52,700 nucleotides of DNA from Candidatus Jorgensenbacteria bacterium. GTDB lineage: Bacteria; Patescibacteriota; Minisyncoccia; UBA6257; GWB1-50-10. Position numbers and translations under genes: made by a program. Below the pieces are notes generated by a model that saw only the letters and a list, made by a program, of their open reading frames with translations, was not told the origin of the DNA and ran no database searches. The stretch covers positions 1 to 52,700 of the forward strand of contig JAZDPW010000034.1 in assembly GCA_043797305.1 (NCBI GenBank). Reading direction: 5' to 3'. Positions 19,361 to 49,837 of this stretch are shown piece after piece (within the stretch, counting starts at the first letter, position 1; each line of letters begins with the position of its first letter).

Positions 19361-20650
19361 TTATTCAACTCGTTTAATACTTGCTCCCAAATATTTCAAT
19401 CTTTCGTCAATTCTCTCGTAACCGCGGTCTATTTCCTCCACGCCCGAAATTTCGGATTCTCCTTCGGCAATCAAAGCCGCCGTAAGATGAGCCATCCCCG
19501 CTCTCAAGTCCGGCACCTCAAGACGGGCTCCCCGAAGAGGCGTCGGTCCCTGAATTTCGGCTCGATGGGGAAACTTGCCGGCAAAACGGCAATTCGAACC
19601 AAGACAATCTTTTGTTACTTTAATATTTGCTCCCATCAAATTCAAGTCCTTGGTGTAACCTAAACGGTCTTCGTAAATCGTCTCGTGAATTTCCGAAAGG
19701 CCGTCAGCTTGAGTGAGAAGAATGGCAAGCGGCTGTTGCCAGTCGGTCATAAATCCGGGATGGGTATCGGTTTCGATTTTGGTTGACTTCAATTTGCCGG
19801 CCCGCCAAAACCTGATGCCGTCATCCCTGACTTCATAGTCGCCGCCAACCCGCCGGAGGGTATTTAAGAAAGTTATGAGGTGCTCTTGGATCGCGTCTTT
19901 TACGAAAATGTCGCCGTCGGTCGCGATGGCAAGAACGGCAAAAGAAACCGCCTCGTTCCGGTCGGGCATTATCCTGTGCTTCACCCCCCGCAAGTGGCTT
20001 ACGCCATCTATCCGGATTATCCGGTCGGCGCCGAGCTCGATGATTCCCCCCATTTTCTGCAAAAACTTGATTAAATCCATGATTTCCGGTTCAAGAGCCG
20101 CGTTTCTAATCACGGTTTTCCCCTTGGCCAAAACCGAGGCCAGAAGCGCGTTTTCGGTGGCACCAACCGAAGGAAAACGCAGGGTGATTTCCGAACCGTG
20201 CAGGCCGTTCGGAGCCGATGCCTTATAGGAATTTTCCGAAACGGTAATTTCGGCGCCGAGAAGTTTCAGTGCCTCAAGGTGAATGTCAACGGGCCGGGCG
20301 CCAATTTTGTCGCCGCCTACCACCGGCACTTCGGCCATCCCCTTGCGGGCAAGAAGCGGACCTAAAGCCAAAATAGGCAGCCGATTGCGGCGGGTAAGAG
20401 ACCGGACTTCGGTACTTTTAATGACCGGCGTTTTGATGGAAACGGTGTTGCCGTCTTTTAAAACTTCGCTGCCGAGTTCTTCGCAAAGACCGATGGTGAT
20501 TGCCGTATCGCCTATCAGCGGAAAGTTTTCCAAAATCGAGGTTTCGTCGGAAAGAATCGAAGCAACCAAAAGCTTGGTCGCGGCGTTCTTCGCGCCGGCG
20601 AGCTTTATCTCGCCCTTCAACGGTTGCTTGCCCCTGACAATAAAGTTCAC
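19361..20650 (-). CDS. murA: UDP-N-acetylglucosamine 1-carboxyvinyltransferase (Asp in place of the catalytic Cys)
   Basis: GAKNA, GGDKIGARPVDIH, SVGATEN, HPGFMTD, DLRAG, IDRGYE; GTG start formed by the MITE end. Confidence 0.96.
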   Translation of the reverse strand: MNFIVRGKQPLKGEIKLAGAKNAATKLLVASILSDETSILENFPLIGDTAITIGLCEELGSEVLKDGNTVSIKTPVIKSTEVRSLTRRNRLPILALGPLLARKGMAEVPVVGGDKIGARPVDIHLEALKLLGAEITVSENSYKASAPNGLHGSEITLRFPSVGATENALLASVLAKGKTVIRNAALEPEIMDLIKFLQKMGGIIELGADRIIRIDGVSHLRGVKHRIMPDRNEAVSFAVLAIATDGDIFVKDAIQEHLITFLNTLRRVGGDYEVRDDGIRFWRAGKLKSTKIETDTHPGFMTDWQQPLAILLTQADGLSEIHETIYEDRLGYTKDLNLMGANIKVTKDCLGSNCRFAGKFPHRAEIQGPTPLRGARLEVPDLRAGMAHLTAALIAEGESEISGVEEIDRGYERIDERLKYLGASIKRVE

Positions 20651-20781
20651 CCCGTTAGAAGTCTGTTTTTAATATTTGACCTTGTCATATTGGTGAATAT
20701 ATTAACTTGTTTGATTTTTTCCGTCAGCGCCGCGCATAAAAATTTCGTTGAAATTTTTAGTGCCTTGGACTTCTAACGGGG
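20650..20781. mobile_element. MITE-like element, 132 bp
   Basis: Perfect 14-bp TIR CCCCGTTAGAAGTC/GACTTCTAACGGGG; TTCA duplicated at 20646-20649 and 20782-20785; sister copy at 49709. Confidence 0.85.
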
Positions 20782-20828
20782 TTCATTGTTATTACCTCGT
20801 TCCTCCAGTATACTATTCGGAAACCTTC

Positions 20829-22187
20829 ATGAAAAGACGCCTCCGGAACATCTTATTCGCGACCTTTGTTTTGCTCTTCGTGCTTGTCGGAGGTTATCTC
20901 ATTTTTATCGCCCAGGGCTTTGTCGTGAATTTCGACGATTTCAGGATTGAAAAAACCGGCGCCATTTTCCTGAAATTTACGCCCCGGGATGCGGTCCTCT
21001 CGATAAACGGCGAGGAAACCGATTACAGCCAGGGTGGTTTCTTGGAATCGTCCGGCGTCATTATAAAAAACCTCGCTCCCGGTTCATACCGCCTCAATCT
21101 TTCCAAAAACGATTATCACGCCTGGGAAAAAAACCTGGAAGTTCAGTCGGGGCTCATCACCTCCGAAAGCCACGTTAATTTGTGGCCGAAAAATCTGCCC
21201 GAGGAAACGGTGATAGAACAAAACGTCAAAGATTTCTGGCTTACCGGAGAGGGTGTTATCCATAAAAACGGCGATAATCGGCTGATTTTCAACGATCTTA
21301 TGATAAGAGGAGAAAATGTTTTTCTCTCCGCCCCCGAATCGAAAATTCTGATTACGGAAGAGGGAGAAGAACATTTCCTCGTTGACCTCAAGGATCCACG
21401 CTCGGCCGTAAATCTCTCCCATCTTTTCAATTCCCTCAAACAACGGCAGCTTGCCCTTGCCGGCGCCGTCCCCATAACCGACGTTCTCTTTCACCCTTTC
21501 AGCCCGAATAAAATAGTAATCGTCAGTAAGACTTCTCTCTACACGATTGACGTCGAAAAAGTCCAAATCGAGAAACTTGTCACTCTGGAAGAGATAAAAT
21601 CGGTGGCTTTGAGCACAAGCGACGCCTTTATCATCGACGGAAACGACAATCTGGCGATTATAAACCTTCTTTTAAAAACTTCGCTCCACGAGACGACAAA
21701 GATAGGGCCGACAAGGGGTTTTACGACCAATTCCGACGGCACAAGCGTCTTTATCCTCACCCCGGAGAACGAGCTTAAGATTTACAGGCGTTCTTCCGGC
21801 AAAATCGACACTCTCGCCACCAACGTCAGAGAATTTGAAATTTCTCCCGAAGAGAAAAGAGTTGCCGTTATAACATACGGCAACGAACTCGAGATTGCCT
21901 ATTCCGAAAACTTCGAAGGAGACATAAAAAACGAAGCCGGGACAATCGTTAAAATCCCGGATGCGTTTCAGGGAAATATCAAAAGTGTCGGCTGGTTTGC
22001 CGACTTGCCGAACTATTTAATATTTCTCGAGAACGGCAACCTGACCGTTCAGGAAATCGACACGAGGGTTCCCGTAAACCGCCACCTTCTTATCACTGGA
22101 GTCCTTAACTACGAAACGGAAGATAAAAATATATATATCCTGAAAGACAGCGGCGAGCTTACCGTTTCCGCCATCCCGACGTCTTAG
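20829..22187 (+). CDS. PEGA-domain membrane-anchored protein with beta-propeller-like C-terminus
   Basis: Basic N-terminus plus TM helix, KTGAIF...P.DA...ING...L.PG.Y...K..Y..W.K PEGA pattern; the upstream in-frame extension runs through the MITE and is rejected. Confidence 0.8.
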   Translation: MKRRLRNILFATFVLLFVLVGGYLIFIAQGFVVNFDDFRIEKTGAIFLKFTPRDAVLSINGEETDYSQGGFLESSGVIIKNLAPGSYRLNLSKNDYHAWEKNLEVQSGLITSESHVNLWPKNLPEETVIEQNVKDFWLTGEGVIHKNGDNRLIFNDLMIRGENVFLSAPESKILITEEGEEHFLVDLKDPRSAVNLSHLFNSLKQRQLALAGAVPITDVLFHPFSPNKIVIVSKTSLYTIDVEKVQIEKLVTLEEIKSVALSTSDAFIIDGNDNLAIINLLLKTSLHETTKIGPTRGFTTNSDGTSVFILTPENELKIYRRSSGKIDTLATNVREFEISPEEKRVAVITYGNELEIAYSENFEGDIKNEAGTIVKIPDAFQGNIKSVGWFADLPNYLIFLENGNLTVQEIDTRVPVNRHLLITGVLNYETEDKNIYILKDSGELTVSAIPTS

Positions 22188-26337: not shown

Positions 26338-28008
26338 TCAATTGAGGATTATTTTCACCTTGTCGGGATTTGCCGGCACCTCTTGAACCCAAAAGGGCCA
26401 AAGAGAGATATTCGCCCGTTCCAGGCCGGAGAGAAAAAAGACGGTTTTCCTCAATTCTTCCTCGTTCTGCCCGGCAAATTCCCGTTTCAGTTCTTCAACG
26501 TCGAGATTCGGCTCAAAGACCACTTTGCCCTCAACCGGGAAAACCATCGAAGTTTTTTCGAAATCTATTCGCGGTTCGCCGTAACTCATCACAAACTCTT
26601 TTACCCTGGTATTGGAATCAACGGTCTTCACAGCGTCGGAAACAACGGCTTCTTCGAGCATTTTTTCCTCAAAAACGAGGTAACGAAGCTCCGCCTCGGC
26701 AAAAACGCGGAAACTGCCCGCTTCGCCCGCGGAGCGAGGCAAGTCCTCACTCCCGGCTGTTTCGATTTTTTCGTTCAAAACCTCAAACTCCCGGGCGTCG
26801 GGAAAAACCTTGAACTTGTCGGAGAGCAAAATAAGGACTTGAGCCTCGAGAACGCCTTCCAAATCCGAAAGCAGTTTTGCTTTTCCTTTACTGATGTCCT
26901 CTTCCGTCGGCACGGCCTCTTCTCCCACAAATCCGCCGCTCATCGCCTCTTCGGAATCGGCATAAAAACCTTCGTACCGCGGGTCGCCTTTAAACCCCGG
27001 AATCCGCCAGTGCTTTTCCGGTCCGATGTTGTAATCATTTCCGGCTTCGTCGGCCGTAACCCTGACATTGATTTTGAAAGGAACGATTTTTCCGTTTTCA
27101 ATCTTCGCGCCGGGAATGGTTACACGCTCGGCAAGACGGAAAATTTTCCCGCTCGGAGAAACAAACCGGGTCGTCGCAACGAGGACCTGAGATTCGGAGC
27201 TGTAAGCGTTGTAAACCGTAAGGATGCCTCCCGCTTTTCTTTCAACTTTTTCCCGGCCGGAAGCGGGAAAACTCAAGCTCAGATTCCCCTTCGCCTTCAG
27301 GAGCTCGGCGGGAAGAATCACTTCCGTTCCTTCGGCCGAAGCGACTTGGTGCTTACTCGTCGCCTCCACTTCGTAAGCGAAGGTGACTGGAACTTTTTTA
27401 AGAATCATCTCCACGGTTGCTTTGGGCAAAACGCGGTTCGCGACAAACATACCGCCCAAAACAACAAGAACCAAGAGAGCGAAAGAAAAGGTTCTTTTCA
27501 AAACCCGGTGCCTTTTGTTGTTTCGGAAAGCCTTTTTCGCCTCAACCGGCATAACTATTTTCTTCGGCTCAATGTATATTTCTTCGTTCCGCCCCAAAAA
27601 TTCTTTGGGGCGAGGCTCGCCTCCTCCGGAGGCGGCAACCCTTTCTTCTACTTCCTCTTCCTCCACTATCTTTTCCTCAACGCTTGCCGCCGGCATCTTT
27701 TTGAACACTGGCCTCGGTAAAATGTCGGAAATAATTCTTTCTCTTTGCCTGAAAACCGGGTTAAAAGCCTTGATTTTGGCAAGGGACGCGAGCTCGAGAA
27801 TCCTATCGTCAACCGATTCAACGTGGAGCTCCTTATCGGCCGTCGAACTCTCTCTTTTCAGAACGTGGAAATTACTGACCGACGAAGCCAAAACCGAATC
27901 GCGGGGAATGTTCAAAACAACGATATGGCTCCTGGCTTCAATGAGCCGATGGACGGCAACATCGAGATCTTCGTTTTTATCGAGAAAGAATTTCTTTTCT
28001 GTTTTCAT
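26338..28008 (-). CDS. Membrane-anchored CPR protein with baseplate J/gp47-like domain
   Basis: Single TM helix, then KAGG.L.VYN...L...TRF...G..F...V.IPG...V.A...G..YNI...IPG pattern; true start MKTEKK at 28008. Confidence 0.7.
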   Translation of the reverse strand: MKTEKKFFLDKNEDLDVAVHRLIEARSHIVVLNIPRDSVLASSVSNFHVLKRESSTADKELHVESVDDRILELASLAKIKAFNPVFRQRERIISDILPRPVFKKMPAASVEEKIVEEEEVEERVAASGGGEPRPKEFLGRNEEIYIEPKKIVMPVEAKKAFRNNKRHRVLKRTFSFALLVLVVLGGMFVANRVLPKATVEMILKKVPVTFAYEVEATSKHQVASAEGTEVILPAELLKAKGNLSLSFPASGREKVERKAGGILTVYNAYSSESQVLVATTRFVSPSGKIFRLAERVTIPGAKIENGKIVPFKINVRVTADEAGNDYNIGPEKHWRIPGFKGDPRYEGFYADSEEAMSGGFVGEEAVPTEEDISKGKAKLLSDLEGVLEAQVLILLSDKFKVFPDAREFEVLNEKIETAGSEDLPRSAGEAGSFRVFAEAELRYLVFEEKMLEEAVVSDAVKTVDSNTRVKEFVMSYGEPRIDFEKTSMVFPVEGKVVFEPNLDVEELKREFAGQNEEELRKTVFFLSGLERANISLWPFWVQEVPANPDKVKIILN

Positions 28009-28302
28009 CCCCCACATAATTTACACAGACAGAGAGTGACTCAATCTCTCTTTGAGTCGGCGCAGACCTTGTTTGTGCAATTTAAGCTGATGCTCTCGAC
28101 GAAAAGCATCTTGTTTTGAGGTATAACCCTCGAAATAGATAAGTTTCCAAGGTAGATACTTCTTGGTGTGGTAGGATTTTTCCTGATTATGTTCTTTCAC
28201 TCTCTTCTCCAGGTTAGAGGTACATCCTACATATAGGGTTTTGTTTTCCATTGATTGCAACATATATACGTAGAACATAATCAGTGTAAGTTATGTGGGG
28301 GA
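28008..28302. mobile_element. 295-bp TIR element carrying only a GIY-YIG nuclease gene
   Basis: TIR TCCCCCACATAATTTACAC / GTGTAAGTTATGTGGGGGA (18/19); TTCA duplicated at 28004-28007 and 28303-28306. Confidence 0.85.
28021..28278 (-). CDS. Stand-alone GIY-YIG nuclease
   Basis: FYVY...LYVGCT..L..R..EHN...T....PWKL.YFE......A..RE..LK; AT-richer than its neighbours. Confidence 0.93.
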   Translation of the reverse strand: MFYVYMLQSMENKTLYVGCTSNLEKRVKEHNQEKSYHTKKYLPWKLIYFEGYTSKQDAFRREHQLKLHKQGLRRLKERLSHSLSV

Positions 28303-28316
28303 TTCATGGCTTGTGA

Positions 28317-48331: not shown

Positions 48332-49363
48332 CTACTCCGTCTCGGAGCCCATCACCTTGTCGAGTAGGTTCCGCCACTCCGCTTCGGAGTGGAATCTGAC
48401 TATTATTCTGCCCCGGCCTTCTTTTCTTTGAACCTCAACCGGGTTCCCCAGTTTCTCTTCAAGGCGCTTCTCCCAATACTTCGACTCCGGGTCAACAACT
48501 TTTGGAAGTTCGCTTTTCGTTCGGGCAACGGTTTTGCCGCTCAAAAATTTTTCGAACAGTTCGTTCTGCATTACCGGGTCGGCGGAAGTAAGAATCAACC
48601 GGGCCTGGGACTCGTTTATCTTACCCTCCGAAAGAGCGTCCTGAATGTTGCCGGGAAGGCCGAGAAGCCGGACGGCGTTTGCGACTGTCTCCCGACTCCT
48701 ACCGATTTTTGCGGCTATTTCCCGTTGGGTGAGATTGAACTCGTCCTGAAGTCTGGCGTAAGCCCGGGCGGCTTCAATCGGATTCAAGTTGCTCCGCTGG
48801 ATGTTCTCGACGAGCGCCACCTCCAGTTTGTTCCGGTGAACGTCAAAGCGCTTCACAATTACCGGCACCCTCGGCAGACCGATAAGTTTTGCGGCCATAA
48901 GCCGGCGCTCCCCGGCAATAAGCTGGTATGAAACTTCGGTGCCCCCTAAGGGGGCTCCTTCGGGGCCGGTCGGCGTCTCGCTTTCCACTTTGGTAACGAC
49001 AAGCGGCTGGATGATTCCGAACTCACGGATTGACTGAGCAAGCTCGGCTAAATCCTCTTGATTGAAAGCCCGGCGCGGCTGAAAAGGATTTGGTTGTATT
49101 TTTTCAACTTCAATATGAAAAATTGCTTCTTGAGCGGCCGGCTTCATTTTCGAAAAGACGGGGTCTCGCGTCCCAGCGTGCCGCTCGCCCACTTGCCTCT
49201 CACCCTCGCTCTCTCGCTTCGCTTCGAACCGTGCCCGCTCGGGCTCCGAGACACTTTTCTCAAAAAAAGCCGGTCGCTCTGCACTTTGCGGTGAATTTGA
49301 AAATGTTTGGGACGCTTTGTTGTCCTTTTTCGGAATTAATGATTCCAGTCCTTTTCCAAGCAT
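48332..49363 (-). CDS. parB: Chromosome partitioning protein ParB
   Basis: LGKGL.SLI, NPFQPR, GIIQP, IAGERR, ENIQR. Confidence 0.95.
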   Translation of the reverse strand: MLGKGLESLIPKKDNKASQTFSNSPQSAERPAFFEKSVSEPERARFEAKRESEGERQVGERHAGTRDPVFSKMKPAAQEAIFHIEVEKIQPNPFQPRRAFNQEDLAELAQSIREFGIIQPLVVTKVESETPTGPEGAPLGGTEVSYQLIAGERRLMAAKLIGLPRVPVIVKRFDVHRNKLEVALVENIQRSNLNPIEAARAYARLQDEFNLTQREIAAKIGRSRETVANAVRLLGLPGNIQDALSEGKINESQARLILTSADPVMQNELFEKFLSGKTVARTKSELPKVVDPESKYWEKRLEEKLGNPVEVQRKEGRGRIIVRFHSEAEWRNLLDKVMGSETE

Positions 49364-49424
49364 TACTTCTATATTATTACGTCTAAAATCCGCGTCAATC
49401 GGCTTTTATAAAACCAAAACAGAG

Positions 49425-49672
49425 GTGGCCTGACCAAGCTCCGCAGAAAGTTTTCTCCAAGTGAGATTTCGAGTCTTAATAATAATTAATTAAAGAACAC
49501 CTCGAAATTTATGAAGTACTCGTTTCCGCAGATTTCAGCCGTACCTCCCTCTGCTTCGGTTTGCATGCACGCGCATGAGTCCGTAGACATCCGAAATGAA
49601 TGAGCGGCCCTAAATTCAGGACCGTACGCTCCCTTCCTTAAGGGCGCCCGAGACACCCCGAAAGCCACGAAC
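49425..49672 (-). ncRNA. Candidate structured RNA between parA and parB
   Basis: Terminal helix GUGGCUU/AGGCCAC; internal hairpins with G-U pairs only on the minus strand; upstream TTGACA-16-TATCAT. Confidence 0.4.
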
Positions 49673-49708
49673 TGATAAAAATGATAAAAGATAGGCCTTT
49701 TATGTCAA

Positions 49709-49837
49709 CCCCGTTAGAAGTCTGTATATCTGGGGATAAATTCAGCTAATAAAAAGGACATTTTATTGCTCATTCTTCTCATTATCACAGAGCAAAAAAT
49801 TTCGCCCGAAATTTTTTGCCGAGGACTTCTAACGGGG
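49709..49837. mobile_element. MITE-like element, 129 bp
   Basis: 14-bp TIR CCCCGTTAGAAGTC/GACTTCTAACGGGG; TCAA duplicated at 49705-49708 and 49838-49841; subterminal AAAAATTTC..GAAATTTTT hairpin as in the 20650 copy. Confidence 0.85.

Follow-up and report, generated by a model that had tools for sequence, protein, structure and literature searches.

Bacteria harbour several known families of MITEs (miniature inverted-repeat transposable elements), among them the Correia elements (CREE) of Neisseria and the RPE of Rickettsia, which measure 100-150 bp, possess inverted ends and a short target duplication and occur in many copies. Both are transcribed together with neighbouring genes, and RPEs even lie inside reading frames without breaking them. 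These families go back, or have been ascribed, to DDE-type insertion sequences, or their parent is not known, and we know of no Correia/CREE or RPE that targets or rebuilds start codons or shares its ends with a GIY-YIG gene. GIY-YIG nucleases are familiar as homing endonucleases such as I-TevI and the products of the Seg genes of phage T4, which carry added DNA-binding domains and act on one allelic site by recombination. A further group, the Ssn family (cd10448), consists of small GIY-YIG nucleases that stand alone and are encoded by genes with hairpin repeats on either side (Chenal et al., Nat Commun 2025, PMC11893778). The authors liken the NTS-ssnA-NTS arrangement to an insertion sequence; a hairpin within single-stranded DNA is bound by the enzymes, which cleave a few nucleotides upstream of it but leave duplex DNA uncut, and cleavage persists if the hairpin is assembled from two half-oligonucleotides (PMC11893778). 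Within the Candidate Phyla Radiation (CPR), GIY-YIG genes were found in non-intron insertions of rRNA genes, without further analysis in the part of the paper considered (J Bacteriol 2024, PMC11270868). Here we describe a 132-bp MITE that occupies the start codon of murA in a window of 52,700 nt, the whole stretch of DNA analysed. The window is contig C34 of a 669-kb, 35-contig, 97%-complete assembly (genome G000), whose homologue names point to Patescibacteria/CPR. The element is probably a gene-less copy of a family whose full form carries a GIY-YIG nuclease gene.

The 14-bp end CCCCGTTAGAAGTC is present at 20650-20663 on the plus strand and at 20768-20781 on the minus strand without a mismatch in either, and the duplication flanking the element reads TTCA on the plus strand at 20646-20649 and 20782-20785 (Table 1). 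If the minus strand is followed across both junctions, ggtaataacaATGAA abuts CCCCGTTAGAAGTCCAAGGCACTAA at the first and CTTCTAACGGGG abuts TGAACTTTATT at the second. On the murA strand this yields the layout GGTAATAACA ATG AA, then CCCCGTTAGAAGTC, the element's interior, GACTTCTAACGGGG and finally TGAACTTTATT, with the old ATG at 20786-20784, while the new GTG of murA consists of the terminal G of the element and the TG of the duplication. An earlier note on this DNA had described a MITE of 132 bp with perfect 14-bp inverted ends and a TTCA duplication, inserted at A↓TGAA (the arrow marks the insertion point) of the murA start. It had further claimed that the old ATG opens just a nine-codon frame, MNPVRSPRH, and that an element-supplied GTG, made of the terminal G and the duplicated TG, starts an intact MurA. 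The layout of duplication and element and the reading of the frames bear out all of these points. Within the window, the exact 14-mer occurs four times, as two pairs. With up to three mismatches seven occurrences are found, which is within shuffle expectation (mean 4.66), so that the evidence comes from the exact pairs together with the family as seen across the genome.

Table 1. Positions of the murA element, its surroundings and related elements. Coordinates refer to the window unless another contig of G000 is named (C6, C7); ORF, open reading frame.
Feature	Position	Strand	Remark
MITE, 132 bp, gene-less family member on the murA start codon	20650-20781	minus	site empty in G002, G003 and G012
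Inverted end on the side upstream of the gene, reading CCCCGTTAGAAGTC on the murA strand; source of PVRS in the short upstream ORF	20768-20781	minus	
Inverted end, gene-proximal side, GACTTCTAACGGGG on the murA strand; includes TAA, last G is base 1 of the new start	20650-20663	minus	
Target duplication, upstream copy, TGAA on the murA strand; forms the old ATG with the A at 20786	20782-20785	minus	single copy in empty sites
Target duplication, downstream copy, TGAA on the murA strand	20646-20649	minus	
Relic upstream ORF from the old ATG, MNPVRSPRH and stop	20757-20786	minus	stop 106 nt ahead of the new start
murA, 429 aa, start is the regenerated GTG (20650-20648)	19361-20650	minus	N-terminus in residue-by-residue register with orthologues
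Subterminal hairpin of the MITE, GCAC-TAAAAATTTC / GAAATTTTTA-TGC	20734-20763	minus	family-conserved, compensatory changes
Promoter-like site upstream of the MITE, TTTTCA, 17-nt spacer, TATACT	20807-20835	minus	consensus match only
Second, diverged GIY-YIG mini-element, 295 bp, ends beginning TCCCCCACATAA	28008-28302	minus	on the start codon of gene 26338-28008
GIY-YIG ORF of the 295-bp element, 85 aa, own ATG; stop 12 nt before the regenerated host ATG	28021-28278	minus	63 bits to PF01541
Second MITE of the murA-element family in the window; intergenic, off start codons; duplication TCAA on plus (TTGA in family orientation)	49709-49837	minus	
282-bp copy, same 14-nt ends and TGAA duplication as the MITEs	C6:2409-2690		
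282-bp copy, same 14-nt ends and TGAA duplication as the MITEs	C7:6221-6502		

The insertion can be compared with empty sites in related genomes. MurA orthologues were obtained from 22 of the 26 genomes searched, that of the congener G002 being 93% identical to MurA of G000, and four members of the genus have a collinear murA 5' region. The empty site reads gataataacaATGAAGTTTATC in G002 (also written gataataacaATGAAGTTT; start context ATGAAG), ATGAGATTT in the congener G003 (ATGAGA) and ATGAAATTC in G012, a member of another genus (ATGAAA). The flanks of murA in G000 are collinear with all three, and the excess amounts to exactly one TGAA plus the element. Hence the comparison of murA 5' regions in relatives, which the earlier note had proposed, turned out in its favour, as the orthologous empty sites hold ATGAA or ATGAG. 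Four further insertions were compared with G002, and for three of them both flanks could be located, each G002 locus consisting of 94 nt made up of flank, one tetramer and flank. The sites of C7:6221 (a 282-bp copy), C17:39371 and C17:40614 read ATGGAT, ATGAA and GTGAA, respectively, and in the last case the terminal A of the element converted the start to ATG in G000. At C7:5618 the upstream flank in G002 is too diverged to be located. A single copy of the target duplication is therefore present in four of four G002 loci with both flanks (murA, C7:6221, C17:39371 and C17:40614).

In G001, a family copy resides at the same murA start codon (loci L068/L088), again with a GTG, and the former ATG is now a decayed ATA. 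Between the occupied genes of G000 and G001, codons 2-10 downstream of the GTG are conserved, with synonymous differences, which argues that the rebuilt GTG is the working start of murA, while a TTG at codon 11 is a formally possible alternative as judged from the sequence. Identity between the two murA copies is 76%, and in a tree that is weakly resolved, given about 130 nt, each of them clusters with other copies. Since murA is occupied in G000 and G001 and empty in the closest relative G002, either recurrent insertion or an old insertion with precise loss could have led to this distribution. Among these genomes, the family is represented by three MITEs in G003 and two in G001.

The connection to a nuclease stems from the two 282-bp copies, which contain an ORF of 93 aa that is read from the host ATG and matches the Pfam family GIY-YIG (PF01541; E 3e-16, 59.9 bits versus a cut-off of 22.6). 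This frame traverses the left end (CCC GTT AGA AGT, i.e., PVRS) and ends at the TAA inside the right end, after which CGGG and the rebuilt GTG follow, the nuclease stop being 4 nt ahead of the regenerated start. In the C6 copy, the host-derived ATG is the sole start-capable in-frame codon before the invariant Tyr12, the next one being codon 30, and in the C7 copy the next start-capable codon in frame after the host ATG is codon 15. The two nuclease ORFs differ with a synonymous divergence (dS) of 0.76 and a nonsynonymous to synonymous ratio (dN/dS) of 0.11. The residues Y12, Y23, R33, H37, N38 and E69 are invariant in 17 sequences; based on knowledge of the GIY-YIG fold, we take them to be the catalytic residues. 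The best relative of solved structure is UPF0213 BH0048, a weak match (E 1e-4), and a tblastn search of the 93-aa protein against plasmids, with E up to 1e-6, delivered no match.

The window itself contains a second GIY-YIG mini-element of 295 bp (Table 1). Its TGAA duplication is located at 28303-28306 and 28004-28007, its target reads caagccA↓TGAA, and through its terminal A the gene ending at 26338 regains ATG AAA ACA. While its ends differ from those of the murA family, the target A↓TGAA is identical, in agreement with the statement of the earlier note that both elements share target and rescue. The mechanical ORF call of this gene starts inside the element end (28006-28017, minus strand; MWGMKTEKK...), and the rebuilt ATG at 28008 is likely the true start. 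Three adjacent GIY-YIG matches, two of them fragmentary, were seen at C24:50388-50933; they look like nested or decayed copies from another subfamily with ends beginning AATCCTTCGCTAAAGC.

To what extent the murA element is representative becomes visible at the level of the genome. BLAST with the element gave 25 matches in G000, while the end motif with up to two mismatches occurs 57 times in the whole genome. These end matches led to 31 candidate pairings, from which three long ones were dropped, leaving 28 elements in 669 kb, 26 of 129-136 bp and two of 282 bp. The long pairings (1428-2697 bp) had been considered as larger autonomous elements and were rejected, as their ends match poorly and no duplication is present. 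The 26 short copies hold relic ORFs of 9-45 codons only. Altogether, 24 of the 28 copies lie on starts of ORFs of 73-695 aa, and persisting copies are overwhelmingly found at A↓TG(A/G)(A/G) of gene starts. After removal of the elements in silico, every ATGAA, ATGGA or ATGAG site of the genome (n = 3659) was classified. This placed 323 sites on the first start of an ORF of at least 70 aa, 107 near a start, 428 in intergenic or other positions and 2801 inside crude genes. Among the copies, in contrast, 22 of 28 sit on a first start (binomial P ~1e-18 against 323/3659) and one near a start. The C16 copy occupies the start of a DHH-family ORF with a further start codon upstream in frame, the C10 copy lies at a stop/start junction, 6 nt ahead of an ATG, and three copies are intergenic, with the duplications TTTA, TCAA and TCAA.

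The flanking tetramers co-vary between both sides (TGAA in 17 copies, TGGA in four, TGAG in two, one decayed), and the non-start copies likewise show TTTA and TCAA on both sides of the element; consequently, the duplication is genuine and no fixed part of the element. The base preceding TGAA is A in 21 of 22 cases and G in one. All 23 copies that could be oriented are collinear with the gene (the two 282-bp copies were outside the alignment). A Pfam scan of the host ORFs other than murA and those of C30 and C35:7377 identified SSB, SecD/F, L31, epimerase, DivIC, GrpE, NUDIX, SIMPL, a GT2 glycosyltransferase, DHH, ATP synthase epsilon and alpha, a T2SS-F/PilC-like protein, an M50 peptidase, an RNase H-like protein and an M16 peptidase, besides four ORFs without Pfam match. 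The host genes include ssb, rpmE, atpA, atpC, grpE and secDF. For SSB, L31, ATP synthase epsilon, NUDIX and epimerase, the Pfam profile begins at ORF residue 1-4, and the rebuilt codon is therefore the true N-terminus. The earlier note had named a lack of enrichment at start codons as an outcome that would refute it; with 22 of 28 copies on first starts the ends are strongly enriched there, and essential housekeeping genes are among the hosts.

Some observations on individual copies should be added. C14:4440-4572 and C25:7192-7323 lie in a near-identical locus, each on the ATGAG start of a 489-aa GT2-like gene, with MITE sequences that differ; the pair could reflect duplication of the region or the presence of two strains in the bin, whose contamination is 3.6%. 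The second MITE of the window adjoins about 340 bp without a convincing ORF (49364-49708), which separate it from a ParB-like gene (48332-49363) and lie upstream of a ParA-like gene; both names stem from reading the translations. In public sequencing data, one 217-nt contig from an RNA library matches both ends of a family copy, while DNA carry-over is possible.

The two ends of the element can pair with each other. In an alignment of 21 MITEs, from which the five most divergent were omitted, this pairing is maintained in 20-21 of 21 copies at every position. Pair 1/137 is U-A in 16 and C-G in five copies, pair 12/126 is G-C in 19 and A-U in two, pair 13/125 is U-A in 16, C-G in three and U-G in two, and pair 14/124 is C-G in 17 and U-A in three, with one mismatch. 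The subterminal hairpin on the gene-upstream side covaries likewise. Such compensatory end changes fit a recognition of the two-end stem and gave one reason for looking to the Ssn nucleases. A search of 20400-21000 against Rfam, with E up to 1, revealed no family and no intron.

Full-length elements of this kind are widespread in CPR genomes. Homologues of the nuclease form at least 920 clusters at E up to 1e-5 in a public protein collection. The N-termini of 28 fetched homologues read MNPVRS in 12 cases, MSPVRS in three, MNPVRN in two and VNPVRS, MNSVRS and MSSVRS in one each, which are the residues expected from TGAA, TGAG and GTGAA targets. The same set comprises six homologues of 86 aa with an own ATG (MWYVYVL) and a few that are fused to upstream frames. 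Small GIY-YIG matches occur in 37 of 41 genomes of the order, with up to 15 in one relative of 700 kb. When 38 of these matches were examined for ends and duplication, 12 displayed ends of at least 11 nt together with a perfect 4-bp duplication. Nine of the 12, three of them from G000, lie on A↓TG(A/G)(A/G) with a downstream ORF of at least 126 aa, and in six of the nine the nuclease frame either terminates 4 nt ahead of the rebuilt start or shares an ATGA overlap with it. A second sample of 80 loci was drawn from a species-level genome collection and covers many CPR lineages and a few records with labels other than CPR; at least two of its loci duplicate loci of the first sample. Ends were recognised in 57 of the 80 and a perfect duplication in 33, of which 22 have a right-junction start codon opening an ORF of at least 60 aa; these figures are lower bounds, as the end-finder is naive and mis-registers some elements. 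By duplication, 11 of 11 TGAA, one of one TGAG, one of one TGGA and nine of ten TATG elements are on a start. The latter form a sister class of full-length elements (L145, L160, L161, L168, L169, L173, L188, L190 and L199) in which the whole ATG is copied and the nuclease ORF is out of frame with the copied ATG.

How the occupied genes are translated deserves separate consideration. GGAG or GAGG at positions -18 to -4 precedes only 4.3% of 258 well-defined ATG starts, compared to 7% inside genes, the leaders are rich in A/T and poor in G, and the most frequent start context is ATGAA (61/258). Translation initiation in G000 thus appears to be independent of Shine-Dalgarno sites. A mechanism by which a Shine-Dalgarno site is hijacked and brought near the GTG by the stem was dropped as a general explanation, since such sites are not enriched at starts. 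In eight of 24 start-codon copies, i.e., the full-length copies and six MITEs, the stop of the upstream frame comes within 4 nt of the new start, and for most MITE copies, that on murA among them, coupling can therefore not account for translation of the host gene. Termination-reinitiation coupling might serve the host genes of full-length copies, whereas in decayed copies such as that on murA the GTG would be used by independent initiation without a Shine-Dalgarno site, and ribosomes on the nine-codon ORF may assist by melting the two-end stem. Our best guess for murA is such an independent initiation at the GTG, aided by ribosomes on the upstream ORF. Given the promoter-like site upstream of the MITE (Table 1), the element would belong to the 5' leader of murA; a scan for a sense-strand promoter inside the MITE, which would provide a short murA leader, found none. 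Another promoter-like site inside the MITE (20676-20703, plus strand; TTGACC, 16-nt spacer, TATATT; 10/12 matches) faces away from murA, toward the divergent gene starting at 20829, and its TTGACC lies in a family-conserved block. This divergent gene of 453 aa and murA are about 42 bp apart (20787-20828), and a common palindromic AGTATACT in between scores as a -10 box on both strands.

Among the described systems, the Ssn nucleases come closest. They are likewise stand-alone, single-domain GIY-YIG proteins (~94 aa compared to 86-93 aa here), and the spacing of Tyr-Tyr (11) and Tyr-Glu (46) resembles that of SsnA (11 and 47), where Y6, Y17 and E64 were mutated (PMC11893778). As far as the sections covered describe it, the ssn gene is also flanked on both sides by inverted-repeat DNA that is scattered through the genome as well, and on inspection the stem-proximal bases look similar, with GTCATTCCCG in NTS and TTCATCCCG on the antisense strand here. 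In contrast to the separate hairpins of 20-50 nt found there, the two repeats here are halves of one stem that closes the whole element, to which the cleavage of split hairpins by Ssn enzymes would fit. The dRS3 core ATTCCC[N8]GGGAAT has zero occurrences in G000. Beyond the Ssn systems, the elements described here feature 4-bp duplications, gene-less MITEs, a position on start codons and an ORF that uses the start codon of the host. The terms 'start codon', 'Patescibacteria' and 'Candidate Phyla' do not occur in PMC11893778, and target duplications and MITE derivatives are absent from the sections considered.

The IS200/IS605 elements and REP/RAYT systems are similar in their very small size, in hairpin recognition, in an insertion beside a fixed tetranucleotide that is specific for strand and orientation, and in the short hairpin repeats that they gave rise to (see also PMC11893778). 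However, IS200/IS605 elements employ a Y1 HUH transposase and have neither inverted ends nor a duplication, while the present elements possess inverted ends and a co-varying duplication, and no Y1_Tnp match was obtained. Homing genes share with them that a GIY-YIG nuclease is the sole gene of a selfish insertion, and a weak match to group I intron endonucleases was found below cut-off; yet homing genes lack inverted ends, duplications and MITEs, whereas here 24 non-homologous targets are occupied and each is duplicated. The GIY-YIG insertions of CPR rRNA genes come from the same organism group but concern rRNA genes, and neither inverted repeats nor start codons are mentioned in that paper (PMC11270868). 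A literature search, which covered sources other than subscription journals and supplements, yielded no account of GIY-YIG elements that have inverted ends or target duplications or are located on start codons. Thus MITEs and Ssn-type nucleases with flanking repeats are known, while start-codon-dwelling GIY-YIG mini-elements and their MITEs are apparently new.

We consider it likely that these sequences represent a very small mobile-element family, the full form of which comprises about 280 bp and a single gene for a single-domain GIY-YIG protein of 86-93 aa, and that the murA element is a MITE of this family. The family inserts at TGAA-like tetranucleotides, which become duplicated. After insertion, the host A and the duplicated TG form an upstream start that opens the frame of the element, and the last base of the element (A or G) together with the duplicated TG rebuilds the ATG or GTG of the host, so that the host protein is unchanged. 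In the murA copy, the internal frame has decayed to nine codons and the gene depends on the rebuilt GTG. The GIY-YIG nuclease may be the mobility enzyme and would probably recognise the two-end stem in analogy to the recognition of hairpins by Ssn nucleases. A search for three DDE families, DDE_Tnp_1 (PF01609), rve (PF00665) and DDE_3 (PF13358), and for Y1_Tnp gave no match in the 97%-complete assembly, from which repeats can drop out. Since 282 bp leave no room for another gene either, the nuclease is the only candidate for a mobility enzyme. The co-varying 4-bp duplication implies a 4-nt staggered cut in a duplex target, and the fixed orientation implies that the two ends are distinguished and the asymmetric target is recognised in a single sense. 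The bias toward start codons might result from ATGAA being the commonest start context and from the start codon being the one harmless place for an insertion within a gene.

Several points weigh against this interpretation. The link between nuclease and elements is one of association. The MITEs share only about 14 nt per end with the 282-bp copies, and the interiors are unrelated. We know of no route by which a hydrolytic GIY-YIG nuclease of 93 aa would arrive at strand transfer. In addition, a 4-bp duplication implies cleavage of double-stranded DNA, while the published Ssn enzymes cut single-stranded DNA only, according to the sections covered (PMC11893778). The copies are 52-84% identical to the murA copy and show no sign of very recent activity. 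None of the assembled contigs of four public runs joins across an empty murA site, although these are uninformative because they break inside the repeat; apparent joints turned out to be other family copies that match at the ends only. With regard to the start codons, four of 28 copies are located elsewhere, and against sites outside crude genes the enrichment is P ~7e-7, with a null that consists of crude ORF calls and with C14 and C25:7192, apparent versions of one locus, counted once. Active recognition of starts is not indicated by the targets, as 22 sites compared with 118 ordinary starts (C1:17347 with its decayed duplication and the duplicate C25:7192 omitted) revealed no conservation beyond (A)TG[AG]A. 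Finally, 16 of 24 copies, murA with its distance of 106 nt included, are without a stop within 4 nt of the new start, and the predicted RNA fold places the GTG at the foot of a 22-bp stem (z -2.7).

In light of these points, other explanations have to be considered. The start-codon pattern could be due to selection only, if insertion occurs at any TGAA-like site irrespective of genes and only survivors are seen, since in a genome that is ~88% coding an insert would be tolerated solely in intergenic DNA or at a start codon that is rebuilt. We regard this as a serious possibility that falls somewhat short of even. The lack of any preference beyond (A)TG[AG]A against the 118 background starts fits this idea, as do the commonness of the ATGAA start context, the position of all four non-start copies in intergenic DNA (C10 at a stop/start junction) and the complete absence of copies from gene bodies, although 2801 of 3659 candidate sites lie there. 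However, starts make up 38-50% of the sites outside crude genes, by a crude null, and yet 21 of 24 ATG-type copies are found on them (23 of 24 with near-starts; P ~1e-6). The A before TGAA in 21 of 22 cases, with one G, would agree with a preference for 5 nt or with start-codon selection, and the orientation, which is fixed in 23 of 23 copies, meets no obvious selective demand in gene-less MITEs. Less plausible, and in our view unlikely, is that the GIY-YIG gene is carried as a passenger or serves the host in a domesticated role, for instance as an Ssn-like limiter of transformation at its hairpins, while the MITEs are moved by an unrecognised transposase, by host recombination or repair acting on hairpins, or by an enzyme from another genome. 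A host-level role in transformation has indeed been described for SsnA of Neisseria and its domestication proposed in the sections covered (PMC11893778), the MITE interiors bear no relation to the 282-bp copies, and G003 and G001 hold three and two MITEs, respectively. In contrast, 282 bp offer no space for a further gene, and both ends form part of the ORF, which begins in the left junction and terminates in the right end. Many genera show this architecture again, with end sequences that differ. The dN/dS of 0.11, the absence of all four searched transposase families and the up to 15 small GIY-YIG matches in one 700-kb relative, which are typical of selfish spread and unlike a single host gene, likewise speak against this reading.

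Homing, in which the nuclease would cut the empty ATGAA start of the same gene on incoming or sister DNA and the element would be copied by recombination, with rare illegitimate spread to new genes, appears improbable to us. GIY-YIG enzymes are classic homing endonucleases, TIGR01453 gave a weak match (E 2.9e-8, below its cut-off), and the murA site is occupied in the congeners G000 and G001. Yet in one genome 24 different, non-homologous genes are occupied, each copy is flanked by a co-varying 4-bp duplication, which homing does not produce, the MITEs are devoid of a nuclease gene, and the two murA copies are only 76% identical and group with other copies, albeit in a weak tree of ~130 nt. 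Least of all do we expect a host-encoded leader cassette, i.e., a structured 5' regulatory element without mobile DNA, for which we see hardly any chance. Location in 5' leaders, a single orientation and the conserved hairpin would suit such a cassette, but the precise empty sites with exactly one tetramer in close relatives contradict it, and co-varying duplications, ends shared with nuclease-bearing copies, the lack of an Rfam match and copies distant from genes speak against it as well. Returning to the mobile-element interpretation, its most far-reaching form is, in our judgement, evenly poised between right and wrong. It states that these elements may constitute a new class of prokaryotic DNA transposons and, at ~280 bp, the smallest autonomous mobile elements, with an Ssn-type nuclease that would recognise its own two-end stem. 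They would have evolved to live on start codons (A↓TGAA, T↓ATG), borrowing the host start in some lineages, restoring the host start and coupling both frames by a stop within 4 nt, while their MITEs would persist on essential genes across the CPR and may set the level of translation.

If the nuclease is the mobility enzyme, a stand-alone GIY-YIG protein would represent a new type of transposase, prokaryotic mobile DNA would have a new size record, and the Ssn nucleases would gain a natural history as selfish elements. The insertion itself follows a peculiar logic, in that a parasite of 130-280 bp would settle at the one harmless position of a gene, usurp the host start and mend the damage with its own last base. 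For genome annotation, such elements explain why many CPR genes seem to begin at a GTG that follows a hairpin, or receive incorrect N-termini in gene calls. Automatic calls of such genes will tend to add spurious N-terminal residues, as exemplified by the MWGM... call at window position 28017. The elements also account for the many small proteins labelled 'GIY-YIG nuclease family protein' or 'excinuclease ABC subunit C' in CPR genomes. Finally, essential genes such as murA, ssb, atpA, rpmE and grpE, which would be translated across inserts, offer a concrete case for Shine-Dalgarno-independent initiation and reinitiation.

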